A DNA stretch of 64,000 bases from Woeseiaceae bacterium (GCA_024640365.1 JAHEFE010000004.1:39959-103958), one strand, 5' to 3'; positions 46,022 through 64,000 are shown, numbered from the stretch's first letter. Numbers and translations: made by a program. The notes: generated by a model from the letters alone, not told the origin.

Positions 46022-47923
46022 CTAGTCGCGTTGGCGGCGATTACTATTGCGTGCCTTGCTCGATGTCTTGGTACTTGACGAGCTTGAGCTCTTTGGCGCC
46101 GGGCTAGCCTGCGGACTGGCTTGCCTCGGTGCCGACCTTGGCGCAGGAGCCTGGCGCTGGCTTTGCGGTGCTGCGTGCTCACGTTGTACACGGGTAGGCG
46201 CTGCCTGTCTTACCGAAGGTGCCGGTGCCGAGCGAGCCGTTTGAGTGGGTGCTGTGTGCCGCACTGAGGGTGTTGGAGCAGTGCGAGCAACCTGCGAACT
46301 ATATCGCTGCGGCGAACTCGAGCGAGCGACCGGCTGACGTTGGACCTCACGCGCGCTGGAACGGTTTGCATTGTTGGCAGTCTCGAATGAACTCCGAGCA
46401 TCAGTTCGAGCGGTCGTTCTACCCGTTACCGCCGTCCTGTTTTGTTGGCCACTGGCTTGTGCCGTTTGCCGAGTCGGGGCGACAACTGCGGTCCGGTTCA
46501 CTGGTGCGCTGGGGCGTTCGCGAAAGGCGGTCGTTGGTATCTCGGTACTACGGCGTCCAGTTCGTTCGCCGCTGCTTCTTGAAACCGCTGTGTTGCTGCG
46601 CGATGCGTTATTCGTACGGTCTCGCAGGGCTGTTGAATTGCTTGCCTGGCGGCTACCAGTCGCGCGTCTGTCTGCTGCTGTACTATCGCGATTCGTTTCC
46701 AGCCTATTTGTCGCCGAGTGCCCGGCAATAACTGCAGACGGAACATCTGTTTGGCGCGGCTGCGGACGGCTATTACCGTTTCTCGATGTTGCGATGTCCG
46801 GACCGCTACGATCATCGCGCGAGGAATTGCGCGAGGAATTGCCGCCAGCGCTTTGCTGACTATGACGAGTATTGCCTGATGCTGCGGCACGCTCCGTCCC
46901 ATTACTGCCATCATAACGAAGGCTGCTGCGATTGACTGAATCACGGCCAGTATCGCGACGACTGCGGGAGCCTGAACTGTGACCAGCATCGGCCCGCCAC
47001 ACATCACCGTCCCTGTAGTGATCGCGTCCATGGTCATCGTGATGGCGATTGTTGCCGTAATAATTATTCACGTACACATTTACGTCAGGGCGGCGGTAAT
47101 AGTGGTACCCGTAGTTGTAGCCATAATAGGGGTGACCGTAGTAACTATTGTGATAAACGGATACGTAATGCGAATGCCAGGAAAGGTAATACGCAGAGGT
47201 TACGCCCCAGAAAAAGCCGCTGCTGAATGAATAGTCGACCGCGTACGGATAGTAGTAGACAGGATACGGACGCGGATAATAATAGTAGGCGGGTGCGGTT
47301 TGATAAACGACAACTCGCTCGGGTTCGTAATAAGGCACATAAATAACGTCATCTTCGATCGGCGTAATTTCAATAATATCGTCGTTATTTGTTACGACCT
47401 GGTGTTCATCGGTCTTAAGGTTACCCGCTGCATAGGCGCGATCACGGAATGCCTCGACCGCAGTAATAACATCCGCTTGTTGATCAGCGACTGCATCGCC
47501 AAGCTGCGCTGTCCAGATCAGATCCTTATTCAGCATTCTGACCACTTCAGGATAGTTGAGGAGCGCGACGATGGAGTCGTCCCAGGCCTCGTCAGGCTCC
47601 AGTGTGGCGTCAATTTCCAGGTCGTCGAGGAAGCGCGCTGCGAGAACGATTTGCAATGGGTAGGTGGATGCAGGCAAAACGATGGCCAACAATTCATCGG
47701 GATAGAGTGCCACCGGCCCCACGAGCGTTTGCAGTTCCTGCGCGGTCAGTAACACCGGCGTAACGGTCGCTTCGCCAGGCGATTCGGCGACCGCATCAAT
47801 AGTCGACAGCTCGACACCATTCTCGTCAACCGGGACTTGCGCAAAGCTTGGATAACTAGCCAGAGCGAAGAAACTGATCGTCCCTAGCAGGGTAACAAGT
47901 GCGGATTTTTTGATAGTGTCCAT
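46022..47923 (-). CDS. DUF3300-family secreted protein with Tyr-rich segment and long low-complexity tail
   Basis: Signal peptide, then LVGPVALYPDELLAIVLPASTYPLQIV...ALLNYPEVV (DUF3300 signature). Next comes a YYYYPRPYPVYYYPY.../YYGHPYYGYNYGYHYY block, then about 330 aa rich in S/R/T/A/N/P. Confidence 0.8.
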   Translation of the reverse strand: MDTIKKSALVTLLGTISFFALASYPSFAQVPVDENGVELSTIDAVAESPGEATVTPVLLTAQELQTLVGPVALYPDELLAIVLPASTYPLQIVLAARFLDDLEIDATLEPDEAWDDSIVALLNYPEVVRMLNKDLIWTAQLGDAVADQQADVITAVEAFRDRAYAAGNLKTDEHQVVTNNDDIIEITPIEDDVIYVPYYEPERVVVYQTAPAYYYYPRPYPVYYYPYAVDYSFSSGFFWGVTSAYYLSWHSHYVSVYHNSYYGHPYYGYNYGYHYYRRPDVNVYVNNYYGNNRHHDDHGRDHYRDGDVWRADAGHSSGSRSRRDTGRDSVNRSSLRYDGSNGTERAAASGNTRHSQQSAGGNSSRNSSRDDRSGPDIATSRNGNSRPQPRQTDVPSAVIAGHSATNRLETNRDSTAADRRATGSRQASNSTALRDRTNNASRSNTAVSRSSGERTGRRSTEIPTTAFRERPSAPVNRTAVVAPTRQTAQASGQQNRTAVTGRTTARTDARSSFETANNANRSSAREVQRQPVARSSSPQRYSSQVARTAPTPSVRHTAPTQTARSAPAPSVRQAAPTRVQREHAAPQSQRQAPAPRSAPRQASPQASPAPKSSSSSSTKTSSKARNSNRRQRD

Positions 47924-48748: not shown

Positions 48749-49432
48749 TTAGCGATGTATTTCCGGTAAGAAAGTTTGCAGAAGATTATTGCGGCCGAGC
48801 TCGGTCATAGGTGCGGCAGTCGTGCCTGCTGGAATCTGACTCTGCAAATCGTTGAGCGTCATGTAATCGGGGTGGTGTATTTCGGCAATTGTCGCGTAGC
48901 GATACTCTGCGCCGTCCCTGGCAACCAAAAACTCGTAAATGCTGATGGCCAGCACCGACAGGTCGGCTTCGGGCATAAGCTCACGTAAAAGTGATGATGT
49001 CCGCAGGTCTATGTTCGCAAGCAGTAATTGTTTTTTGTGTATTGTCCAATTGGCATTCCGGAAAGTGATACCAATTGAGCCACCCTCGCGAATTATTTGC
49101 TGTTCGCGGGCGAGATGCGTTAGAGCATCGTCAGAAAAGAGAACAATGGCGAGAGTACGGGTAATTCGGCTGCCATTGTCATTTTCGCTGTATAGACTGG
49201 ATACGCGGCTCAATTCATCCTGACGAATTATTTTGACACCATAGCTGCCAAACTTTTTCAGAATATTGTCGCTATTGAGAACTCTGCCCGAGTTTGCTAC
49301 GGAGCTCAGTGACGCAGCAGACCCTGTTACCTGACCATGCGGCGCGGGACATGCGCCTAGCAGAAGGCTAAGCAGGGTAGCCAGCAGCAGTCGCGCGCTC
49401 TGGTTATTTAATGATTGGCTCAAGCGCCGCAT
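48749..49432 (-). CDS. Hypothetical lipoprotein
   Basis: 227 aa with signal and lipobox LLSLLLGAC. No recognisable domain. Confidence 0.55.
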   Translation of the reverse strand: MRRLSQSLNNQSARLLLATLLSLLLGACPAPHGQVTGSAASLSSVANSGRVLNSDNILKKFGSYGVKIIRQDELSRVSSLYSENDNGSRITRTLAIVLFSDDALTHLAREQQIIREGGSIGITFRNANWTIHKKQLLLANIDLRTSSLLRELMPEADLSVLAISIYEFLVARDGAEYRYATIAEIHHPDYMTLNDLQSQIPAGTTAAPMTELGRNNLLQTFLPEIHR

Positions 49433-49536: not shown

Positions 49537-50355
49537 TCAATATCCGGTCATGCCACCAGGACGTGATCGCAGCAATTTGAATTTGCTGTAGCCCATGTCG
49601 ATGTATGGTTGCAGGGGAAAATCAACCATACCCAGTAATTGCCGCTTTTTGATGGGCTGCGAGCACTGAAACTCACCGCCGTTAAATTTGTTAATTCGAG
49701 ATATGGAGAGATAACAAAGTTTAGACGGGCAGGTCAGTGCGCATCCTGCGTTGGCGAATAGAATGATGCGATCTTTTTGCTCGACCTCTTCCAGAAATTC
49801 TAAATCCTCATTTAATCGCATCGGCAGTACGACTGAGTCATACAGCGTTAGTGCCTCTTCAATTTTTTTGTGGGATTTGATGTTCTTGATGACGCTGGCA
49901 TCGAGCGAATAATTTGGGTAATCGTGCCGAATCCAGCGGGCGAGGTCGTCATTCGTTGTAATTATCGAATTACCTTTACGATGATATTTATCGAGTAGCG
50001 TCTGGCACTCGTCATACTCATCTCGTTCTGCGAAGTGATTGGACATTGGAATTCGCAATCCAATACCGGCGTTGTTCAGTTGCAGTACATCCCTATCAGA
50101 GAGTTCGCGTTGTGAATAGCCGCGTCCACCATACAAACTGCATGGCTCAACGAATCCGAAAATGCTTTCAATTTCGCGTAGTGCAATATTGCCGTATTGA
50201 TTACGTAAATAGGCAAATATCGGCATCGAGGGGTTTTTCCCTCGAGCAGAGATTGTGTATGTTGCCTTTGGGGTATCAAGGGGTTGGGCTTTTGTAAAAA
50301 TACGCTCGTAGGGTATTTCACTTTTGCCAGTTGCTTCGCCTGCTTGTGTATTCAT
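49537..50355 (-). CDS. Hypothetical protein with CX3CX4C motif (lower-GC gene)
   Basis: Start set at MNTQAGE; the ORF track allows 50397. Contains NAGCALTCPSKLCYLS plus three more Cys. Visibly more AT-rich than its neighbours. Confidence 0.55.
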   Translation of the reverse strand: MNTQAGEATGKSEIPYERIFTKAQPLDTPKATYTISARGKNPSMPIFAYLRNQYGNIALREIESIFGFVEPCSLYGGRGYSQRELSDRDVLQLNNAGIGLRIPMSNHFAERDEYDECQTLLDKYHRKGNSIITTNDDLARWIRHDYPNYSLDASVIKNIKSHKKIEEALTLYDSVVLPMRLNEDLEFLEEVEQKDRIILFANAGCALTCPSKLCYLSISRINKFNGGEFQCSQPIKKRQLLGMVDFPLQPYIDMGYSKFKLLRSRPGGMTGY

Positions 50356-50395
50356 TGCCCCGTTCCCTTCGCCATTTATTATAATAATGCACTGC

Positions 50396-50423
50396 AAAAA
50401 GGGCCGGTGGTTGAGGCCGGCCC
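50396..50423 (-). terminator. Rho-independent terminator (minus strand) after hsp20
   Basis: On the minus strand: stem GGGCCGG / CCGGCCC, 9-nt loop, then TTTTT. It begins 8 nt after the hsp20 stop. Confidence 0.65.
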
Positions 50424-53934: not shown

Positions 53935-54972
53935 ATGGATAGGCGAGAATTTCTCAAAATATCGGCCGTGGTAGCTGCCGCACCAGCCGCGACGGCTTGC
54001 GCGGGTCCCGATGTTTTTCACGACGAGAACGTAACGATGAGCCCATTCAATGAGGATTCGACTGCCGAGGATGTAACCGCCGGAATGGATTTAAGCGGCA
54101 AGGTGGCCGTCGTGACCGGCAGCAATTCGGGTATCGGCTATGAAACGATGCGGGTTCTTGCCTTGCGCGGTGCGTTAGTCGTTGGCACCGGCAGAACTCT
54201 GGCCAAAGCCCAAGAAGCTTGTGCCACTGTGCAGGGCCTAACTATGCCGGTGGCGCTTGAGTTATCCAGTTTTGATTCAGTTGTTGCCTGTGCCGAGTCC
54301 ATTCGTGCCTTAAATGTTCCGGTCGACATGTTAATTTGTAATGCGGGTGTTCGGGGTGTTGAGTTGGAAATTGTCAATGGCGCGGAACGAGATTTTGCCA
54401 TCAACCATCTGGGACATTTCCTGCTGGTCAATCGCCTGCTTGATAAGTTGTACGAAGCGAAGCAAGGGCGAGTTGTGGTGGTATCAAGCAGGGCCGCTTA
54501 TGGAAGCGCTCCGCCCGAAGGGATTCAGTTCGACAACCTGGATGGCTCACACGGATTTGATACGTCGTCCGCCTACGCACATTCGAAGCTGGCGAACGCG
54601 TTGTTTTCACGGGAGCTGGCAAAAAGGCTGAGTAGCACGCGAATCACGTCCAATGCACTCCATCCGGGTGTCATAAAGACGAACATAGCAAGGGATAGTT
54701 CGACATTGCTTAATATTGGATTTAGCTTGTATGCCGGATTTAGTGGCAAGAATGCCGCAGAGGGTGCTGCAACGACCTGCTACGTTGCCACCGATCCTGC
54801 GCTAGCCACCGTCAGTGGCCGTTTTTTTGAAGACTGCAATGCGGTTCGCATCGGCGGGCGCAACCACATGGAGGATGATGAACAGGCGGCGCGGTTGTGG
54901 GACGTATCCGAAGAGCTAACCCGTCCGTACCTGGCGACCTTTGTGAAGCCCGAAATCTCAACTGATTCGTGA
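53935..54972 (+). CDS. SDR oxidoreductase with twin-arginine-like N-terminus
   Basis: MDRREFLKISAVVAAAPAATACAG, followed by VAVVTGSNSGIGYET, NAG and YAHSKLAN (classical SDR motifs). Confidence 0.8.
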   Translation: MDRREFLKISAVVAAAPAATACAGPDVFHDENVTMSPFNEDSTAEDVTAGMDLSGKVAVVTGSNSGIGYETMRVLALRGALVVGTGRTLAKAQEACATVQGLTMPVALELSSFDSVVACAESIRALNVPVDMLICNAGVRGVELEIVNGAERDFAINHLGHFLLVNRLLDKLYEAKQGRVVVVSSRAAYGSAPPEGIQFDNLDGSHGFDTSSAYAHSKLANALFSRELAKRLSSTRITSNALHPGVIKTNIARDSSTLLNIGFSLYAGFSGKNAAEGAATTCYVATDPALATVSGRFFEDCNAVRIGGRNHMEDDEQAARLWDVSEELTRPYLATFVKPEISTDS

Positions 54973-55679
54973 TAGTGGGAAAATCGACAAAAATTTCAAC
55001 CGGTGACCTGTTGGATGAACGCGCCCTGGTTGTTCTGTCGGGCGGGCAGGATTCGACGACTTGCCTATACTGGGCCATTGAGAAGTTTGGTGCGACCGCT
55101 GTGGAGAGCGTGACTTTTGATTACGGTCAGCGCCATCGCATCGAACTGGAGTGCGCGCAGAAAGTTGCCGAAAAGGCCGGCATCCCCAATCAGATTTTAC
55201 CGATCGACACATTCGCCGTATTGGGCGGCAATGCCTTGACTGATCAGCAAATGGACGTCGAGACGCCCACAACTGGTCAGTTGCCGAATACATTTGTACC
55301 TGGTCGTAACCTCATATTCATGACATTCGCCGCTGCTTTTGCGTATCAAAGGAAGGCGCGTCATCTCGTAACAGGTGTTGCCCAGACCGACTACAGCGGC
55401 TATCCCGATTGCCGCGAGGATACGATGCGTGCGTTGCAGGAAGCGTTGCAACTAGGCATGGAATCCAACTTTGAAATTCATACCCCTCTGATGCATATGT
55501 CCAAGAAAGAGACTGTGGAACTCGCGAAGCGACTGGGCGCAATTGAAGCTATGGCATTCACCCACACCTGCTACAACGGCGAGCGTCCACCGTGCGGCCA
55601 TTGTGCTTCGTGCGAATTGCGCGCAAAGGGCTTTAGCGAAGCTGGAATTCGTGATCCGCTGCTTGATGTGAAAAATTGA
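54969..55679 (+). CDS. queC: 7-cyano-7-deazaguanine synthase
   Basis: VVLSGGQDSTTCL (PP-loop) and the C-terminal zinc motif C...CGHCASCELR. Start uncertain: GTG at 54969 overlaps the SDR stop, and an in-frame TTG near 55011 would give a more typical length. Confidence 0.85.
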   Translation: MIVGKSTKISTGDLLDERALVVLSGGQDSTTCLYWAIEKFGATAVESVTFDYGQRHRIELECAQKVAEKAGIPNQILPIDTFAVLGGNALTDQQMDVETPTTGQLPNTFVPGRNLIFMTFAAAFAYQRKARHLVTGVAQTDYSGYPDCREDTMRALQEALQLGMESNFEIHTPLMHMSKKETVELAKRLGAIEAMAFTHTCYNGERPPCGHCASCELRAKGFSEAGIRDPLLDVKN

Positions 55680-55682
55680 GCG

Positions 55683-56330
55683 ATGACTTACTCTGTTAAG
55701 GAAATGTATTACACATTGCAGGGCGAGGGCGCTCATACCGGACGAGCCGCCGTTTTCCTGCGATTCGCTGGCTGCAATTTGTGGAGTGGCCGGGAAAGAG
55801 ACCGGGCATCGGCGGTGTGCCGGTTTTGCGATACCGACTTCATTGGCACTAATGGGAAAGGAGGCGGCAAATTCGCTACGGCCGCTGAGCTCGCCGAGGC
55901 AGTTCTGAAGCACTGGCCAGCGCAGAAAAATTCTCTATCCAGACCATACGTCGTTTGTACCGGTGGTGAACCGCTATTGCAGTTAGACGACGCGGCAATC
56001 GTTACGCTGCAGCGCTTCGGATTCGAGGTCGCGGTAGAAACGAATGGAACAGTGCCAGCGCCTGCTGAACTGGACTGGATATGTGTTAGCCCGAAAGCGG
56101 GAGCCAAAGTCGTGCAAACCCGCGGTAATGAACTAAAGCTGGTTTATCCACAAACAGAACCGCAAGCGCAGCCCAAAAATTTCGAAGACTGGGAATTCGA
56201 GCACTTTTTTCTGCAACCGATGGATAATGCGACTCGGCAAGAAAATACGGCTGCCACCATCGACTACTGCCTGAATCATCCGCAATGGAAGTTGAGTTTA
56301 CAAACACACAAGATAGTCGGTATTGACTAG
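55683..56330 (+). CDS. queE: 7-carboxy-7-deazaguanine synthase (radical SAM)
   Basis: YYTLQGEG...FLRFAGCNLWSGRERDRASAVCRFCDT, a CX14CX2C cluster motif. C-terminal LSLQTHK. Confidence 0.85.
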   Translation: MTYSVKEMYYTLQGEGAHTGRAAVFLRFAGCNLWSGRERDRASAVCRFCDTDFIGTNGKGGGKFATAAELAEAVLKHWPAQKNSLSRPYVVCTGGEPLLQLDDAAIVTLQRFGFEVAVETNGTVPAPAELDWICVSPKAGAKVVQTRGNELKLVYPQTEPQAQPKNFEDWEFEHFFLQPMDNATRQENTAATIDYCLNHPQWKLSLQTHKIVGID

Positions 56331-56357: not shown

Positions 56358-57245
56358 TCACGCGTTCGCTGCGGCTGTTTCCTCGAGAGTTTCCTGACGC
56401 CACTCGACAACGTTCATCTCAATAAATATGAAGGCAACCAGCCACAAGAAAGCATCCCAGAAATCTACGAACGAGCCTTCAAAGCCCCAGTAAATAGCTG
56501 CCAGAAATAACGCGGAATACAGAATGAACTTGCTAATTTTGCTAAAAAGGTAGATTGGCCCAACCAGTCGGTTGTGTTCCTGCAGATAAACGTCCATTTC
56601 GAGAACTACGACAATCAGCAGCCACACCGCCGCATTTATCGCGTCAACCCAGGCTAGGGTTTCCATGGTCGTGTAGTCCATTGAACCCACGACGGCGTGT
56701 GCCCCAGGCATTTTATACCACGCGCTAGAGCCCGCAAAATCCGAGCAGTTTCCCGCAGTCAAAGCGATAAACTCGTTGGTATCCCGGGCGTAGGACCAGG
56801 CATCCGTCACCAGAGAGCACACGTCCGTTAAGTTCGGCAGAGGCGTGACACCTAGCACGAACAAGACATTACTCACATAGCCATAAAAAGCGTAGATAAT
56901 AAAGCTGTAACACAGGACACGCACGCCATGCAGCGTCCAGGTGACCTTGCGGGTGTAGTGAGAATCATTGAGTACGTAAGTCTCAAGCTCAAACAATAGC
57001 AACAAGACTACCCAGGACGCCGTGTCTATGGTTGCTGCAAAGCCTTTAATAATCGTGTCGAGATTAATGCCGTTGGCAAATCGGTGAACGGATGCCGCCC
57101 ATTCGAGTTGGAAAAAAATGAATATATTGACACTGAGCAGAATGTAAACCACGTACTTAAATAGTTGGAATACCAGCTCTCTATTGATGGTCACCGATTT
57201 TGCCCCGCCCATTGGGTCTGCTTTTCCTATGCCGAAGTTTGCCAC
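56358..57245 (-). CDS. Polytopic membrane protein of unknown function with a thrice-repeated W-x7-E-[LM]-[EDN] helix motif
   Basis: 295-aa ORF with about 7-8 hydrophobic helices. I recognise no family. Confidence 0.6.
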   Translation of the reverse strand: MANFGIGKADPMGGAKSVTINRELVFQLFKYVVYILLSVNIFIFFQLEWAASVHRFANGINLDTIIKGFAATIDTASWVVLLLLFELETYVLNDSHYTRKVTWTLHGVRVLCYSFIIYAFYGYVSNVLFVLGVTPLPNLTDVCSLVTDAWSYARDTNEFIALTAGNCSDFAGSSAWYKMPGAHAVVGSMDYTTMETLAWVDAINAAVWLLIVVVLEMDVYLQEHNRLVGPIYLFSKISKFILYSALFLAAIYWGFEGSFVDFWDAFLWLVAFIFIEMNVVEWRQETLEETAAANA

Positions 57246-57348: not shown

Positions 57349-59394
57349 TTACCAAATTTGAATACGTTCTGCGGGTGGCAAGTACAATTTGTCACCTTCT
57401 TTGACGTGATAGGTGTCATAAAATGCTTGCACATTTTGGGCAACGCCATTGATGCGGAATTGATCCGGAGAATGTGGATCGCTCTTGATCAGTATCTCAA
57501 TCAGTTCCGGGCGCCATTTGATACGTGCAGATTGTGCGTTGGCCAGGAAGAAGCGCTCATCGCCCGTGAAGCCATCAATCACTGGCGACTCTTTGCCTTG
57601 TAATGACATGTGGTAAGCCTTCAAAGCAATCGATGTACCGCCAAGGTCGCCAATGTTCTCGCCAAGCGTGAATTGACCGTTAACAAACATCCCGGGCAGT
57701 GCTTCGAACTTGTTGTACTGAGCCACAAGGCCACTGGTCTTAGCCTCAAAGTTGCTTCGATCGGCATCGGTCCACCAGCTTTTCAAGTTGCCATCACCAT
57801 CGTACTTGCTGCCTTGATCATCGAATCCATGACCAATTTCGTGTCCGATCGTTACACCAATACCCCCATAGTTCCATGCGTCTTCGGCGTCCATCTGGAA
57901 ATTTGGTGGCTGCAAATAAGCGGCAGGGAAAACGATCTCGTTCATGCTTGCGTTGTAGTAGGCGTTAATAGTCTGGGGCGGCATGAACCATTCGGTACGA
58001 TCAATTGGTTTGCCCAATTTGTCGATAGTGAGGTAATGATCAAAAATTCGCGCGTTGCGAGCATTTGCGAGCATCTCCGTCTTGCTAATTTCAAGGTCGG
58101 AGTAATCACGCCATTTGTCGGGATAGCCAATCTTGGGGGTAAATTTCGACAGCTTGTCCAGGGCGCGCAGCTTCGTTTCCGGGCTCATCCAATCGAGCTG
58201 TTTAATAGAGTCCGCATAGGCTGCGATCAAGTTGTCTACGAGGACTTCCATGCGGGCTTTCGCTTCCGGCGGAAAATGCTTCGCAACGTATAGCTGCCCC
58301 AGGAGTTCACCAAGATCGCCATTGACGCTACCCACAGCACGTTGCCAGCGAGGTTTCTGCTCCTCGCGACCCGCTAATGTTCTGCCGTAGAACTCGAAAT
58401 TAGCGTCAACAAATGCGGCAGAAAGATAGTTCGCATAGCTGCTTATCAGTTTGCTGCGCAGATACTCTTTCCAGGTCTTCAAGTCAGTATCAACGATGAT
58501 TTTGTTGACTGCTTCCAGGTATGAAGGCTGGCCGACAATTACATATTCCTGGCGGCCGCTGCCGAAACCTTCAAAGAAGCCATTTAAATTGTAATTGGGT
58601 AGCAGAGTACTGAGCTCTTCATCTGTTACCTTGTTGTAGACCTTGTCGGCATCGCGCGTGTCTTCTTTCTGCCAATGGTGACTGGCGAGTTTGGTTTCCA
58701 GCGCGATTATTCGCTGCGCTGCTGCTTGCGGCTCTGCATACTTGGAAAGAGTAAGTATTTGCTCAAGGTAGGCACGATACTTTTCGCGAAGTTCCACGCC
58801 ACGCTCGCTGTCATCAAAATAGTACTCGCGATCGGGGAGACCTAAACCGGATTGCCACATGAAGATGGCATAACGAGTAGAGTCTTTGTCGTCCTGTCCT
58901 ATACCCACGGCAATCGGCGAGCCGACGCCGTAAACATTGCTGGAGCCAAAGTAAGCCGCCACTTCATCGCTGTTTTCAAGTGCATCAATTTTGGCGAGCT
59001 CGGCTTGTAACGGTTCGATCTGTAGCGCTTCCACCCGATCGGTATCCATAAAAGCATTGTAATAATCGCCGATTTTCGCTGTGACATCGTCATTGGCAGT
59101 GTCGGCGGCGACATCCTCAATGATCGTTTTAAGCTGACCAAGGCTTTCATTTCTCATGGTCATATAGCTGCCCCAGCCACTTTGATCGGCAGGGATTTCA
59201 GTGTTCTTTAGCCAGGTTCCGTTCGCATAGGCGTAATAGTCGTCTTGTGGGCGGACACTCAGATCCATGCCGTCCTTGTCGACACCCGATTCCAGCGCAG
59301 CGGGGGCATTATTCGCCTGATCGCTTTCTGCCTCATGGTTTTGGCAGCCGGCGAGTAATGCCAGCAATGCAAATCCGGTAACTAGCTTATTCAT
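57349..59394 (-). CDS. M13-family zinc metalloendopeptidase (PepO/neprilysin-like) lipoprotein
   Basis: 681 aa with lipobox LLAGC. HEIGHGFD (HExxH), ENIGDLGG (ExxxD), and C-terminal ...ERIQIW. Confidence 0.9.
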   Translation of the reverse strand: MNKLVTGFALLALLAGCQNHEAESDQANNAPAALESGVDKDGMDLSVRPQDDYYAYANGTWLKNTEIPADQSGWGSYMTMRNESLGQLKTIIEDVAADTANDDVTAKIGDYYNAFMDTDRVEALQIEPLQAELAKIDALENSDEVAAYFGSSNVYGVGSPIAVGIGQDDKDSTRYAIFMWQSGLGLPDREYYFDDSERGVELREKYRAYLEQILTLSKYAEPQAAAQRIIALETKLASHHWQKEDTRDADKVYNKVTDEELSTLLPNYNLNGFFEGFGSGRQEYVIVGQPSYLEAVNKIIVDTDLKTWKEYLRSKLISSYANYLSAAFVDANFEFYGRTLAGREEQKPRWQRAVGSVNGDLGELLGQLYVAKHFPPEAKARMEVLVDNLIAAYADSIKQLDWMSPETKLRALDKLSKFTPKIGYPDKWRDYSDLEISKTEMLANARNARIFDHYLTIDKLGKPIDRTEWFMPPQTINAYYNASMNEIVFPAAYLQPPNFQMDAEDAWNYGGIGVTIGHEIGHGFDDQGSKYDGDGNLKSWWTDADRSNFEAKTSGLVAQYNKFEALPGMFVNGQFTLGENIGDLGGTSIALKAYHMSLQGKESPVIDGFTGDERFFLANAQSARIKWRPELIEILIKSDPHSPDQFRINGVAQNVQAFYDTYHVKEGDKLYLPPAERIQIW

Positions 59395-59640
59395 TTGTAT
59401 TCCCTTTTATTTCGCAATATTCGAAGCGATAGTTTTGTCCAACCGGGTCTCTGACCGTGATTACGCCGTGAAGTTTCGCGCGCCCCGGTTTGATATGCCC
59501 TGATACTGCCGGATTTTGGGCTATTCGCCAGGCATCAGCAAGTCATCAGGCAATGATCATGTCCTTCTCAGGCTTCTCCGTTATCCCAATGGCAATCTCG
59601 CTCCTGAGTCAAGTTGTAGCCAATTCACCAAGGAGACGGC

Positions 59641-60882
59641 ATGAAAACAGCGAATTCAATGACTACCCCAGTGAGAAACTCTGCGGTGGGCGAGAAGTCA
59701 TCATTCATTGCTCAGTCAAAACAGGCGATTGCTGGCGCTGGCATGCGTTGGAAAAAACTAGCCAATGATACGTCGCGGCGCGAGCTTTTTGGTACTTACG
59801 CTCGAGCTTGCGCGCCCCAATTCGCAAGAAATATTGAAAACTATGTCGGCACGATAAATATCCCGGTGGGGATCGCAGGCCCTTTGCATGTACTGGGGGA
59901 GAAAGGTAATCGCACCTATCAGGTTCCATTGGCCACTACCGAAGCGGCACTGGTGGCATCCTACAATCGTGGTGCCCGATTATTAACAGCGGCCGGGGGC
60001 TGTGCGGCAAGTGTCGTTTCGCAACGTCTCAGTCGCACGCCCTTGTTCGCATTTCGCAGAGCCCGCGAAGCGCTGGAGTTCGCTTCGTGGAGCGGCAACC
60101 AGCAGGAACGCTTTCGCTTAATTACACGGGACCTGACGCGGCACGGAAATTTCCTGGCGTCCAACACCGTGATTGAAGGCAATCATGTGTACCTGGAGCT
60201 AGTCTTTTCTACCGGCGATGCGGCGGGCCAAAACATGGTGACCTTCGCAAGTGACGCAATCTGCCGCTGGTTGCTGGGCCGCTCACCTGTCGCCGTTCAG
60301 TATTGGTTTCTCGAAGCGAACCTCTCCGGAGACAAAAAAGCAACTGCGCAAGCGCTGCGCGGTGTCCGCGGCAGGAGAGTAATAGCCGAAGCAGAAATTT
60401 CCCGACAATTACTTGAGACCTATTTACATACGACGCCGGAACGTATGGTCGAGTACTGGAGTGCTGGCGCCATCGGTGGCGTGCTCAGCGGTGCCATAGG
60501 AATGCAGGGCCATTACGCGAACGGCTTGGCGGCCCTGTACCTGGCTTGTGGTCAGGACATCGCCTGCGTCGCCGAATCGGCCGTAGGTGTGACCCGTTTT
60601 TCAGTCACTGAAACTGGTGGTTTATACGCAAGCGTTACGCTGCCCAATATCCTCGTCGGAACTGTCGGCGGTGGGACTGGCCTGCCGTTTGCCCGTGCCT
60701 GTCTCGAAATCCTTGGTCTGGCGGGTGAGGGGCACAGCGACGCATTGGCTGAAGTTTGCGCGGCTACAGTCTTGGCTGGCGAGTTGTCGATCGTTGCTGC
60801 GTTCTGCTCCGATGACTTTGCGAAAGCACATCACTCTTTGTCGCGCGGCGTTGTCTCGGCGGAGGTGCACAGCCATGAATAA
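59641..60882 (+). CDS. HMG-CoA reductase, class-I-like catalytic domain only
   Basis: ENYVGTINIPVGIAGPL...VPLATTEAALVAS, GDAAGQNMV and GTVGGGTGLP motifs. SD AAGGAGA upstream. Confidence 0.85.
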   Translation: MKTANSMTTPVRNSAVGEKSSFIAQSKQAIAGAGMRWKKLANDTSRRELFGTYARACAPQFARNIENYVGTINIPVGIAGPLHVLGEKGNRTYQVPLATTEAALVASYNRGARLLTAAGGCAASVVSQRLSRTPLFAFRRAREALEFASWSGNQQERFRLITRDLTRHGNFLASNTVIEGNHVYLELVFSTGDAAGQNMVTFASDAICRWLLGRSPVAVQYWFLEANLSGDKKATAQALRGVRGRRVIAEAEISRQLLETYLHTTPERMVEYWSAGAIGGVLSGAIGMQGHYANGLAALYLACGQDIACVAESAVGVTRFSVTETGGLYASVTLPNILVGTVGGGTGLPFARACLEILGLAGEGHSDALAEVCAATVLAGELSIVAAFCSDDFAKAHHSLSRGVVSAEVHSHE

Positions 60883-61798
60883 CGATGGAATATTCAAGCG
60901 GCTATGGATCTATCAAGCAGAGCGGTTTCCACTAGTAGCCCACGGCCCCATGGTAATTATTTTCTGTTTTGCTGTGCTTGGCTTCGGATCAGAGGGTGAG
61001 TACGACCGAATTGAATTCACTTATTTGACGTTGGCAACTGCAGTGTTAAGCGTATTGCTGCTTTTCTTTCAGTTAAGGGTGGCTGACGAATTCAAGGATG
61101 CGGAAAGTGACTCTCGGTATCGGCCCGAGCGCGCCGTACCGCGAGGACTGGTTGCTCTTGAAGAACTGGCTTTCTTCGCATGTGCGGCGGCCTTCGTGCA
61201 ATTAACTGCGGTACTTTTAATTGATTGGCGACTACTTTCCTTGTTAGTGCTTGTCTGGTCCTACATGGGTCTGATGACGCGAGAGTTTTTTGCACCTCGT
61301 TGGCTACAGAGTCACCCGGTTATCTATTTGATCAGTCATATGCTGGTCATGCCATTGATTACCTTCTATGTGAGTGCATTTGGCTGGATCAGTAGTTCCG
61401 GAGAACCTCCTCGTCATATTGGCCTACTCCTGACACTTAGTTTTTTTATCGGCGTAATTCTCGAATTAGGGCGCAAGATCAAAAGCGCGCGCAATGAAAA
61501 AAACGGTGTTGAGACCTATAGCCGTCTGTGGGGGGTAAAAACAGCACTACTCGTATGGAGTATGGCTGTCTGGATAGCTGCGATTACCTACGCTGCAATC
61601 GCGTTGCCGTCCGTACCGGCAATGTTTTTGCTGTGTTTAGTGGTGGCAGCCGCTGTGTCGCCATTGGTGATGACGAGGTATTTTCTTGCCGGCAAGGTAA
61701 CTGACTTCCAGATTGAGCTTATGTCTGGATTACTCGCGCTTGTGTTTTATCTCGGACTGGCGCCGTTGCGGTTCGCCGTGGCTTTGGGAGGAGTGTGA
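60875..61798 (+). CDS. UbiA-superfamily-like polytopic membrane protein (divergent)
   Basis: Start at the MNNDGIF ATG, overlapping the HMGR stop by 8 nt. About 8 TM helices. First Asp-rich motif-like ADEFKDAESDSRYRPERAVPRG. The position of the second motif reads ELGRKIKSARNEKNGVETY. The ORF track's longer start (60617) lies inside HMGR. Confidence 0.55.
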   Translation: MNNDGIFKRLWIYQAERFPLVAHGPMVIIFCFAVLGFGSEGEYDRIEFTYLTLATAVLSVLLLFFQLRVADEFKDAESDSRYRPERAVPRGLVALEELAFFACAAAFVQLTAVLLIDWRLLSLLVLVWSYMGLMTREFFAPRWLQSHPVIYLISHMLVMPLITFYVSAFGWISSSGEPPRHIGLLLTLSFFIGVILELGRKIKSARNEKNGVETYSRLWGVKTALLVWSMAVWIAAITYAAIALPSVPAMFLLCLVVAAAVSPLVMTRYFLAGKVTDFQIELMSGLLALVFYLGLAPLRFAVALGGV

Positions 61799-61800
61799 TC

Positions 61801-64000
61801 ATGGAGCTTCTCAGTGCGACGCAAGAAATATCTTTGTCCTTATGGGCCGGTAACAAGGCTACCCGACTCGCAGAGTTGTCTGAGGCCGGCTTCAACGTGC
61901 CGCCATTTTTTGTGCTGCTTGCTAGCGAATGCCGTAACAACCCAGCGGATATTCTAGGGGCCTGTGGTGCGTTGGAGAAAGCACTGCGAAAACTTGGTGG
62001 TGACTCGTATGCAGTGCGCTCGTCCTCGATCGAGGAGGATTCCGCACAGAACTCCTTTGCGGGGCAATTCGATAGCTTCCTGAATGTCGAACCTGCAGAT
62101 GTACGCGCGCAAGTTCGTGCGGTGCTGCAGTCCAACGAGAGCCCGCATTTGAATACGTATAAAAGCCTACAAGGCGTCAGGCAGGAACTTGCCACTCCCG
62201 CCGTCATCGTGCAAAAGATGATTGCCGCCGACTACGCCGGCGTCGCCTTCGCTCTGGACCCGGTTACCGGGGACCGCAATACCATCACCGTTGCTGCCGT
62301 TCGCGGACTTGGTAATAGACTGGTGAGTGGTGCGGAGCAGGGTGATACATGGCGCCTGGATGCTCGCGGTAAAGTGATTAAACAAGAGGTAATGGAAAGC
62401 GCCAAGAAATCGGTCCTTTCAAGACAGCAACTTAAAAAAGTATTGCGGCTAGTACTTGATGTTAGTGAGTACGTTGGCAAGCCGCAGGATATTGAGTGGG
62501 CCATGCAAGGCGGCCGACTGTTCTTGCTTCAAAGTCGCGATATTACGGCGACACCAAAGTGGTCGGTGGGCGCCGAGCAATTTGGGCTCTGGGACAATAG
62601 CAATATTGTCGAAAGTTACGGTGGGGTCACAACACCCTTAACATTTTCTGTGGCCCGAACCGCTTACCGAGAGGCATACAGGCACTATTGCAAGGTCGTC
62701 GGTGTGTCGACTGCTGCAATCAAGGCCAATGAGCGCGCTTTCGATGAAATGATTGGGCTCATTAGAGGTCGTGTTTATTACAACCTGCTCAACTGGTATC
62801 GGCTGTTGATGTTAACGCCTGGATTCAAATTCAATAGCAAATTCATGGAGCAGATGATGGGCGTGACCCAGGGTTTGCCCGAGGGAGTATTGCCAAAACA
62901 TGGCGAGCAGAACCGTTTCGCCGCAATTCGTGCGTACATTGGAATGGCCAATGTCAGTACGCGAATGCTGTGGCACTTAATATGGCATGGCAGGAGTGTT
63001 GTGAAATTTCATGAGCGGCTGAACATTGCTTTGCAGGATGTGCCACTCGCGACGAAGAATACAGAAGCCTTGCTGGCTGAGTTTGATCGTCTCCAAAATG
63101 AGGTAATTCCTCACTGGGATACGCCGCTACTTAACGATATGTATTGCATGATTTTTCATGGAGCGTTGCGAGCCGTAACCACTCGTTGGCTGCCCGCAGA
63201 TTGTTCAGATCTACACAATGCCCTCGTGAGCGGAGAAGCCGGCATCATAAGTCTTGAGCCTATACAACTCATGCAGAAAATGGCCGCGTTGGTGGCTGTA
63301 ACCCCAGGATTGGCAAAACTGATGCAAGAGGGCAAGCGGATTGATGTCGAACGGGCTATTGCCAGCAGTCCGGGTCTTTTCGAACTCTATTCTAATTACC
63401 TTGATCGTTTCGGCGACCGCTGCGTCGATGAACTCAAGCTGGAAAGTGCAACACTGCAGGAAGATTCCCTGCCATTGCTACGCGCGATAGGCCGCATGGC
63501 AACAGATTCACCCAATCGTCCCAAAGGGATCGTCAATCAGCGGAAAGTTGCTGAGGATCGGTTGGCATCGGAATTTGCAGGTCGGCCGATTAAGCGACTG
63601 GTTTACGGTTGGCTTTTGGGGTTGGCACGAGCGCGAGTACGTGACCGTGAAAATATGCGCTTCGAGCGGACTCGTGTGTATGGCAGGGTTCGGCAAATAT
63701 TTCTCGAACTAGGTGAGCGCTTACAGAGTTTGGGCGCAATCATCGCGTGTGACCATATTTTTTATCTTGATGTTGCTGAAATTCGCGGCTATATCCGAGG
63801 TAATGGGACCGTACCCGATATACGAAAATTGGTGTCCTTGCGTCGTTCGGAATTTCGTACTTTCAATGCGGAAGCCTCGCCGCCGCGCCGTTTTATTACT
63901 CAAGGGCCCGTTCAGTTGCAGAGCTCGATACGGATAATACCTTCCGTCGATGCCAGTTCAGATGAAAATGTGCGCAAGGGGCAGCCGTGCTCTGCAGGAA
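61801..64000 (+). CDS. PEP-synthase/PPDK-family dikinase with rifampin-phosphotransferase-like architecture (3' end outside window)
   Basis: My own translation; the frame is open from ATG 61801 to the window end and is not in the ORF track. WAGNKATRLAELSEAGFNVPPFFVL...AVRSSSIEEDS...SFAGQFDSFLNV...DIEWAMQGGRLFLLQSRDIT is a PPDK_N ATP-grasp. It is followed by a long helical middle domain. At the window edge, ...VRKGQPCSAG looks like the beginning of a swivel phospho-His domain. The start is 2 nt after the upstream stop. Confidence 0.75.
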   Translation, partial: MELLSATQEISLSLWAGNKATRLAELSEAGFNVPPFFVLLASECRNNPADILGACGALEKALRKLGGDSYAVRSSSIEEDSAQNSFAGQFDSFLNVEPADVRAQVRAVLQSNESPHLNTYKSLQGVRQELATPAVIVQKMIAADYAGVAFALDPVTGDRNTITVAAVRGLGNRLVSGAEQGDTWRLDARGKVIKQEVMESAKKSVLSRQQLKKVLRLVLDVSEYVGKPQDIEWAMQGGRLFLLQSRDITATPKWSVGAEQFGLWDNSNIVESYGGVTTPLTFSVARTAYREAYRHYCKVVGVSTAAIKANERAFDEMIGLIRGRVYYNLLNWYRLLMLTPGFKFNSKFMEQMMGVTQGLPEGVLPKHGEQNRFAAIRAYIGMANVSTRMLWHLIWHGRSVVKFHERLNIALQDVPLATKNTEALLAEFDRLQNEVIPHWDTPLLNDMYCMIFHGALRAVTTRWLPADCSDLHNALVSGEAGIISLEPIQLMQKMAALVAVTPGLAKLMQEGKRIDVERAIASSPGLFELYSNYLDRFGDRCVDELKLESATLQEDSLPLLRAIGRMATDSPNRPKGIVNQRKVAEDRLASEFAGRPIKRLVYGWLLGLARARVRDRENMRFERTRVYGRVRQIFLELGERLQSLGAIIACDHIFYLDVAEIRGYIRGNGTVPDIRKLVSLRRSEFRTFNAEASPPRRFITQGPVQLQSSIRIIPSVDASSDENVRKGQPCSAG

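Follow-up and report, generated by a model that had tools for sequence, protein, structure and literature searches.

A likely FcrA-type reductase, a UbiA-fold membrane protein and a dikinase of the Rph type at the head of a conserved bacterial operon, a probable route to a fatty-alcohol-derived membrane lipid

A 64,000-nucleotide (nt) stretch of DNA from a Woeseiaceae bacterium (GCA_024640365.1, JAHEFE010000004.1:39959-103958; hereafter the window) ends in three genes on the same strand, encoding a protein related to class I 3-hydroxy-3-methylglutaryl-CoA (HMG-CoA) reductase (HMGR), a UbiA-like membrane protein and a dikinase resembling rifampin phosphotransferase (Rph). Comparative analysis suggested that the first of these most likely encodes an FcrA-type, alcohol-forming fatty acyl-CoA reductase and not an HMG-CoA reductase, and that the reductase, the UbiA-fold transferase and the Rph-type dikinase head an operon for a fatty-alcohol-derived, probably ether-linked, membrane lipid, a reading to which we assign a probability of roughly 0.62. 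It builds on fold assignments, an FcrA residue signature, co-conservation of the genes and gene fusions, each of which is established or strongly supported by the comparisons described below. A first-pass annotation, made from the window alone, had seen in the trio a compact three-enzyme pathway; judged from the loci of relatives, the trio instead opens a conserved operon of seven to nine genes, the remainder of which lies beyond the end of the window.

The product of the first gene scored 349 bits against the Pfam family HMG-CoA_red (PF00368), and 281 bits against TIGR00533, the model for mevalonate-forming, NADPH-dependent HMGR, which is under the equivalog cutoff of 441.8 for that model. 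Its closest solved structure was the HMGR of Methanothermococcus (6hr7, E 1e-72), human HMGR was matched at E 7e-51, and the match to class II HMGR reached only about 1e-7, hence its assignment to class I. Residues of the active site were compared in an alignment of 69 non-identical operon-linked homologues with human and archaeal HMGRs. The catalytic residues Glu559, Lys691, Asp767 and His866 are kept in the window reductase and in at least 67 of the 69 relatives, and Arg590, Asp690, Lys692 and Asn755 are also conserved in the operon-linked reductases. Three other positions of the pocket are altered. Position 684, Ser in HMGR, is Glu in the window reductase and in 68 of the 69 homologues; Leu862 is replaced by Phe in all 69, the window reductase included; and Lys735, which makes the salt bridge with the HMG carboxylate (PMC9500038), is replaced by Ala in the window reductase and is never Lys or Arg in the 69 homologues, 68 of which carry Met (the commonest), Ala, Val, Gly or Ile.

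The same three changes, Glu for Ser684, a small residue for the carboxylate-binding Lys (Lys735 here, Lys795 in that paper) and a bulky one for Leu862, are diagnostic of the pocket of FcrA, a monophyletic clade of class-I-HMGR-like enzymes characterised in 2025 (ISME J; PMC11948995). The FcrA enzyme tested reduces C8-C18 acyl-CoAs to fatty alcohols and does not reduce HMG-CoA; the clade makes up 57-77% of bacterial "class-I HMGR" annotations, and bacteria that have FcrA but no canonical HMGR are also without the remaining mevalonate-pathway enzymes (PMC11948995). Since all three pocket changes are present in the window reductase, mevalonate is a very unlikely product, and the earlier interpretation of the gene as an orphan HMGR making mevalonate gives way to one in which the HMG-carboxylate residues have been replaced exactly as in FcrA. 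The resemblance to the FcrA proteins of Ca. Promineifilum breve and Natronomonas pharaonis (PMC11948995) takes in the class I HMGR fold, the conserved catalytic tetrad, the three pocket changes and an occurrence in bacteria not expected to use the mevalonate pathway. The window protein differs from them in having no N-terminal Lad domain, in belonging to a separate subclade, and in that this subclade is linked to genes for UbiA-like, Rph-like, DUF3419, kinase, GNAT and ligase proteins and not to the wax ester synthase/diacylglycerol acyltransferase (WS/DGAT). Canonical class I HMGRs (human 1dq8, Methanothermococcus 6hr7) share its fold, cofactor motifs and catalytic residues at 35-45% identity, but they retain the HMG-carboxylate residues that it has replaced, and no mevalonate genes were seen near it in the scans described below.

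An exhaustive HMMER search of 1.84 billion representative proteins retrieved 3,358 matches. Amongst the best 150 of these, position 684 was Glu in 85, Asp in 20 and Ser in ten, and only six carried the full canonical set of Ser684, Lys735, Met657 and a His at 770. In a neighbour-joining tree the operon-linked reductases formed their own subclade within the Glu684 clade, and all ten canonical HMGR sequences fell outside that clade. The class I assignment in the first-pass annotation was upheld by the structure matches, whereas its placement of the protein with true HMGRs was not.

Two other types of substrate were considered for the reductase, namely an HMG-CoA analogue with a cationic end (such as carnitinyl-CoA or an aminoacyl-CoA), and 3-methylcrotonyl- or 3-hydroxyisovaleryl-CoA (HMG-CoA minus its carboxylate), which would yield prenol and then dimethylallyl diphosphate; both were demoted in view of the published explanation of Glu684 and the lipid-type fusions described below. 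Separately, the search returned further groups of non-canonical class-I-HMGR-like proteins (representatives P0265, P0267, P0273, P0275-P0277 and P0280-P0281), which have lost Arg590 and carry Arg, Gln or Glu at position 684, and which by signature are neither canonical HMGR nor FcrA. Two of those with Arg684 are fusions, P0267 with an AfsA hotdog domain and P0273 with a PilZ domain.

The three genes of the window lie in tandem on the plus strand. The ATG of the UbiA-like gene (60875) precedes the TAA stop codon of the reductase gene (60880-60882), such that the two overlap by 8 nt (ATGAATAA), and the ATG of the dikinase gene (61801) follows the TGA of the UbiA-like gene (61796-61798) after a gap of 2 nt; its reading frame is still open at the end of the window. 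The coordinates thus bear out the arrangement first described. Shine-Dalgarno-like sequences stand before all three starts, AAGGAG before the first, GGAGG (60861-60865) before the second and GGGAGGAG (61787-61794) before the third. An overlap of 4 or 8 nt at the first junction recurs in 43 of 68 orthologous loci, which argues that the coupling of these genes is not due to chance. The region upstream of the reductase gene, bordered on its other side by a divergent PepO-like peptidase gene (57349-59394, minus strand), had been described as of promoter type with a good ribosome-binding site; its length of 246 nt and the AAGGAG stand, but a consensus scan of 59395-59640 found no sigma-70-like site on the plus strand, hence a promoter can be placed here from position only.

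In a Woeseiaceae metagenome-assembled genome (MAG; GCA_033720315.1, locus L001) the same trio occurs with the same 8-nt overlap, and the operon continues on the same strand with genes for an MMPL/RND transporter, a DUF3419 protein, a 224-amino-acid (aa) membrane protein, a GNAT protein, an AMP-binding enzyme and a 265-aa protein. The window and Woeseiaceae also have in common an upstream SDR-QueC-QueE block and a divergent 295-aa membrane protein, both described below, which suggests that the window derives from a gammaproteobacterium related to that family. The proteins of the L001 locus were searched by tblastn against the first 83 loci fetched and the window. Adjacency to the UbiA-like gene was counted amongst 80 genome-scan loci (GTDB species), for each gene in those with enough flanking sequence, and in a set of metagenome contigs independent of them. 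The reductase gene stood beside it in 66 of 75 genome loci and 39 of 39 metagenome contigs, the dikinase gene in 67 of 71 and 29 of 29, the DUF3419 gene in 63 of 69 and 23 of 23, the GNAT gene in 56 of 67 and 17 of 18, and the AMP-binding ligase gene in 54 of 62 and 17 of 18. In both sets the genes of the trio were co-conserved, and they are tightly coupled. In two of the metagenome contigs (L146 and L150) the gene order was permuted and the gene set was the same.

Altogether about 100 loci, belonging to more than ten phyla, carry the conserved gene set. Cultured carriers include Luteolibacter strains and Desulfosarcina variabilis; the loci also span Woeseiaceae and Verrucomicrobiota, together with MAGs of Acidobacteriota, Planctomycetota (Brocadiaceae included), Nitrospirota, Geobacteraceae, Cyanobacteria, Obscuribacterales, Chloroflexia (Chloroflexota), Micavibrio and Eremiobacterota. 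In carriers other than gammaproteobacteria the operon consists of seven genes, with the AMP-binding gene last, and the MMPL and 265-aa genes are Woeseiaceae-specific additions, found only in the gammaproteobacterial versions. Genes inserted in some operons (ParA-like and others), and the flanks outside Woeseiaceae, showed no conservation.

The UbiA-like protein scored 37 bits against Pfam UbiA, just over the cutoff of 34.2. Its AlphaFold2 (AF2) model (pLDDT 86) had as its top Foldseek matches digeranylgeranylglyceryl phosphate (DGGGP) synthase (7bpu), ApUbiA (4od4), AfUbiA (4tq4) and a phosphoribosyltransferase (PRTase; 8j8j), each with a probability of 1.0 and 13-17% identity, and query-length TM-scores to the first three of 0.57-0.65; the model thus predicts a UbiA fold, of about nine transmembrane helices. 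Orthologues share an invariant first acidic motif, D71-E72-x-x-D75-x-x-x-D79, followed by R83-P84-x-R86...G91, and the DExxDxxxD of this motif aligns with NDxxDxxxD (NDIFDIEID of DGGGP synthase). When a second Asp-rich motif (DxxxD) was sought in the orthologues, no invariant Asp was found after D117, and the invariant residues of the second half are E197, R200, K201, E208 and E213. DGGGP synthase, a member of the UbiA family, uses a lipid diphosphate to form an ether bond in the synthesis of archaeal ether lipids. Of the solved structures it comes nearest to the UbiA-like protein, both by sequence profile and by fold (6m31/7bpu), but the identity is 14-17% and the profile E-value 0.015, the operon is without glycerol-phosphate enzymes, and the donor in the proposed reaction would be non-allylic. 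The nearest relatives of the window protein were from Woeseiaceae (45-53% identity); more than 2,000 relatives were present in a word-indexed protein collection, and when a single genome of each GTDB species was scanned with a pattern, 429 species had them.

The dikinase scored 149 bits against PPDK_N and 516 bits against PRK06241.2-2, the latter below its cutoff. NCBIfam models of the phosphoenolpyruvate (PEP) synthase, Rph and PigC types all scored well under their cutoffs, with RIF_Ptrans_rph at 137 against 999 and the best PEP-synthase model at 516 against 883. Relative to its orthologues the window protein is short of its end by about 97 C-terminal residues, so that the swivel-His domain would lie beyond base 64000. 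Full-length orthologues carry PPDK_N, Rph_4th and PEP-utilizers domains, their best match in the PDB is the rifampin phosphotransferase of Listeria (5fbs/5hv1, E 2e-58), and 69 of 74 orthologues have the swivel-His motif GSLLSHSAIVARE. The Rph architecture of ATP-grasp, middle and swivel phospho-His domains is hence complete in the orthologues, and the window shows its first two parts. Rph and the PigC/RedH ligases share this order of ATP-grasp domain, middle substrate domain and swivel-His domain, but the window dikinase is far under their equivalog cutoffs and stands in a lipid operon, not in a resistance or pigment context. Pfam and NCBIfam thus agree with the first-pass annotation in naming the three folds as those of HMGR, UbiA and a dikinase.

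Amongst the downstream genes of relatives, the ligase is closest to fatty acid CoA ligases (PRK09274, 356 bits) and then to OleC, the exporter is MMPL/HpnN-like, and the GNAT protein, a putative tandem-GNAT acyltransferase, gave generic matches only, the PDB search included. The DUF3419 protein scored 233 bits against DUF3419, the family of BtaA, and its profile had no sequence match in the PDB. BtaA is the S-adenosylmethionine (SAM):diacylglycerol 3-amino-3-carboxypropyl transferase of betaine-lipid synthesis. The fourth conserved gene of the operon belongs to the same family and its product would likewise meet a lipid primary alcohol; as differences, the operon has no BtaB methyltransferase, the DUF3419 domain is sometimes fused to FcrA, and the gene was seen in relatives and not in the window. 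The membrane protein, of 224 aa in Woeseiaceae, is about 440 aa long elsewhere, with invariant RK..H, D..A..G, K..EG and GLDN..P motifs, and is named in its sources as a phytol kinase/dolichol kinase (JGI) or a polyprenol kinase family protein (NCBI).

Fusion proteins were sought as Pfam architectures amongst the Glu684 representatives. FcrA was found joined to an AMP-binding domain, alone or with an intervening PP-binding domain, to an acyl-CoA-binding protein (ACBP), in several cases to small-molecule kinases of the APH/EcKL type, and to DUF3419, with one DUF3419-FcrA-APH triple fusion. The gene for the latter, in a variant operon (L086, 496-7360), is directly followed by UbiA-like and Rph-like genes, with the end of an AMP-binding gene lying before it, and a further variant operon (L087, 1-11319) encodes Rph, GNAT-like, AMP-binding, P450 and MMPL proteins, a fusion of FcrA with an EcKL kinase, and an alpha/beta hydrolase. 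At the level of domain architecture these fusions connect the activation of an acid with thioester reduction, with phosphorylation of the product and with the DUF3419 enzyme, and those of FcrA with kinases in variant operons indicate that the Rph-type dikinase is repeatedly accompanied by a second kinase. In another locus, from a Planctomyces sp. MAG (L083, 3464-15947), a second pair of Rph-like and DUF3419 genes lies upstream, FcrA is replaced by a cytochrome-P450-like gene directly before the UbiA-like gene, and the opposite strand carries the GNAT and ligase genes.

A pathway can be proposed from these assignments. The ligase, judged by its family and its fusions, would make an acyl-CoA from a fatty acid, and FcrA would reduce this to a fatty alcohol in a four-electron reaction, as its diagnostic residues and the published enzymology of the clade suggest. 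The alcohol may then be phosphorylated by the membrane kinase, or in variant operons by the APH/EcKL kinase fused to FcrA, with a second phosphate supplied by the Rph-type dikinase. The UbiA-fold enzyme would move the alkyl group to an acceptor, or else use the alkyl phosphate as its acceptor; the BtaA-like and GNAT enzymes could construct a SAM-derived head group or N-acylate it, and the MMPL protein would export the lipid. Double phosphorylation in steps is proposed because two kinases recur in these operons and because the succession of phytol, phytyl phosphate, phytyl diphosphate and UbiA-type transfer provides a precedent. In the salvage of phytol to tocopherol, the phytol kinase VTE5 and the phytyl-phosphate kinase VTE6 are followed by the homogentisate phytyltransferase VTE2, of the UbiA family. 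That route, like the one proposed, joins a lipid alcohol, two phosphorylations and a UbiA-family transfer, and the operon includes a membrane protein that may be VTE5-like, whereas in the operon the alcohol would come from a dedicated acyl-CoA reductase, the second kinase would be of the Rph type and the chain is probably non-isoprenoid. The general logic of the first-pass annotation, in which reduction of a CoA thioester, phosphorylation and a membrane transferase lead to a modified lipid, agrees with this wider evidence. A more specific version, which we offer tentatively and hold to be doubtful, is a new bacterial route to non-isoprenoid ether lipids, from fatty alcohol through two kinases to an alkyl diphosphate that the UbiA-fold enzyme would use to alkylate an acceptor; that acceptor would carry the SAM-derived head group, and the chemistry would be of the archaeal ether-lipid style performed on straight-chain alkyls.

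Several points weigh against the fatty-alcohol lipid pathway, and the chief of them is chemical. UbiA-type chemistry normally ionises allylic diphosphates, and a saturated alkyl diphosphate is a poor electrophile; to our knowledge, UbiA-type transfer from a saturated alkyl diphosphate is without precedent. The Rph-type enzymes that we know of phosphorylate hydroxyl groups and not phosphate monoesters. The assignment of the membrane protein as a kinase is weak: against Pfam it reached DUF92 with an E-value of 0.15 at best, in three of 15 members, it had no sequence match in the PDB, and its only meaningful Foldseek match was to CdsA (4q2g; probability 0.82, E 0.25). The tree of the reductases is distance-based (neighbour-joining) only and does not include the characterised Pb-FcrA sequence, and in nine of 75 genome loci FcrA was not adjacent to the UbiA-like gene. 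Finally, as the window ends at 64000, its downstream genes are inferred from relatives at only 50-65% identity. Exact-protein look-ups with the window UbiA-like protein returned no record, the window reductase protein was present only on Logan contigs of 1.8-2.8 kb, an exact 38-nt scan of JGI metagenomes gave no match, and a metagenome protein scan found no relative above 51% identity.

Amongst other explanations, the first gene could encode a true HMGR producing mevalonate or a near analogue, with the Rph-like dikinase bypassing mevalonate kinase and the UbiA-like protein using the product. The fold and the eight conserved residues listed above would suit this, as would the want of other mevalonate genes nearby: none was found amongst ten upstream genes scanned with profiles (the remaining window lying outside that scan), by GHMP-kinase motif in any window open reading frame (ORF) of at least 200 aa, or amongst the precomputed Pfam listings for the genes of the L001 locus, in keeping with what the first-pass annotation had reported for the window. 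However, the loss of Lys735, the remaining FcrA signature, the score under the TIGR00533 cutoff, the inactivity of characterised FcrA on HMG-CoA (PMC11948995) and the lipid-type partners and fusions (fatty-acid CoA ligase, ACBP, MMPL) make it extremely improbable. An FcrA that does no more than provide fatty alcohols for storage wax esters, on the pattern of Natronomonas and Ca. Promineifilum, with functionally unrelated neighbours, would draw on the only physiological role so far demonstrated for the enzyme (PMC11948995). This we consider highly unlikely, as no WS/DGAT-like ORF was found in the window and 87 loci gave only two motif matches, possibly by chance; fcrA moreover often occurs without WS/DGAT, implying other pathways (PMC11948995), and the translational coupling, the gene set kept across phyla even when permuted and the fusions to kinase and DUF3419 domains argue for one pathway.

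Two further alternatives are kept because a saturated alkyl diphosphate is poorly suited to UbiA-type ionisation. The chain might be isoprenoid, in that an alpha,beta-unsaturated isoprenoid acyl-CoA (for instance geranoyl-, farnesoyl- or phytenoyl-CoA) would be reduced to an allylic alcohol and converted by the two kinases to an allylic diphosphate for a UbiA prenyltransferase, in parallel with the VTE5/VTE6/VTE2 tocopherol route. Such salvage of isoprenoid acids or prenols would solve the problem of the donor, and accords with the source names of the membrane protein (phytol, dolichol or polyprenol kinase) and with the recurrence of two kinase types with the UbiA gene. It is nonetheless unlikely, given that the bulky residue at 862 is proposed to exclude branched chains in FcrA (PMC11948995), that the ligase is nearest to straight-chain fatty-acid ligases and OleC, and that the fusions to ACBP and acyl carrier protein domains suggest fatty acyl chains. 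Alternatively, the UbiA-fold protein could act in the manner of the mycobacterial membrane phosphoribosyltransferase (DPPR synthase), with an alkyl phosphate as acceptor and a soluble diphosphate as donor, either phosphoribosyl diphosphate (PRPP) or a compound activated by the Rph-type enzyme, to give an alkyl-phospho-linked head group and no ether. No saturated alkyl carbocation would then be needed, PRTase is amongst the top fold matches, and the second Asp-rich motif, not kept as Asp, hints at non-canonical handling of substrate. Yet the matches, all of 13-17% identity, do not separate PRTase, DGGGP synthase and UbiA, and the operon has no gene related to ribose or PRPP, so that this too appears rather improbable.

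No description of the operon was found in the literature on HMGR, UbiA, PEP synthase, DUF3419, phytol kinase, BtaA or FcrA, and the belief of the first-pass annotation that the cassette had not been described therefore holds for the searchable literature. The words UbiA, prenyltransferase and kinase do not occur in the FcrA paper (PMC11948995). The reductase family itself has been known since 2025, and the operon would be a new pathway context for it. The puzzle of the orphan bacterial class I HMGR is largely settled here by the work on FcrA and its fatty alcohols, and the operon is one candidate for the fcrA pathways beyond wax esters that its authors anticipated (PMC11948995). Judging from the families involved, it would link the formation of fatty alcohols with a pair of kinases, a transferase of the UbiA fold and a betaine-lipid-type enzyme, and it is very widespread, its UbiA-like marker being present in at least 429 species genomes and in thousands of metagenomic proteins. 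Were its product an ether- or otherwise alkyl-linked membrane lipid, the operon would give lipid geochemists a genetic marker for abundant bacteria of sediments, Woeseiaceae amongst them, and would widen the chemistry known for enzymes of the UbiA and Rph types. The ether-lipid route, if it exists, could be one origin of the alkyl glycerol ethers that are common in sediments, and would occur in Woeseiaceae, Verrucomicrobiota, Acidobacteriota and Planctomycetota, in sulfate reducers and in others.

Table 1. Coordinates of the operon genes and associated features in the window and in the related Woeseiaceae locus L001.
Feature	Sequence	Coordinates	Strand	Remarks
Upstream intergenic region	Window	59395..59640	+	246 nt; AAGGAG at 59630-59635, 5 nt before first ATG
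Putative FcrA-type class-I-HMGR-fold fatty acyl-CoA reductase	Window	59641..60882	+	413 aa; HMG-CoA_red, diagnostic residues
Predicted divergent UbiA-fold integral membrane transferase	Window	60875..61798	+	307 aa; Pfam UbiA, AF2/Foldseek
Rph-type (rifampin-phosphotransferase-like) dikinase	Window	61801..64000	+	733 aa visible, continues beyond 64000; PPDK_N
Polytopic membrane protein, possible accessory gene	Window	56358..57245	-	295 aa; recurrent divergent operon neighbour
MMPL/HpnN-like RND transporter with sterol-sensing domain	L001	13406-15628		After dikinase
265-aa two-helix protein	L001	20120-20909		After ligase

At 56358-57245, on the minus strand, the window encodes a 295-aa membrane protein that had no Pfam or NCBIfam match. 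Its homologues lie beside the operon, in divergent orientation, in Woeseiaceae loci, in Luteolibacter sp. AS25 (L039, 7792-8619) and in a Blastocatellia MAG (L074), and the gene may be an accessory of the FcrA-UbiA system. The window contains no Rfam families, and its GC content is even, at about 0.52 throughout, with no compositional sign of recent transfer. At E 1e-5 no NCBIfam model matched three sizeable ORFs on the minus strand (46022-47923, 48749-49432 and 49537-50397; 633, 227 and 286 aa). Genes for a short-chain dehydrogenase/reductase (SDR) family oxidoreductase, QueC and QueE (of the Cx14CxxC type) occupy 53935-56330 on the plus strand, and the same SDR-QueC-QueE order is found upstream of the operon in GCA_033720315.1 (L001, 1-1904).

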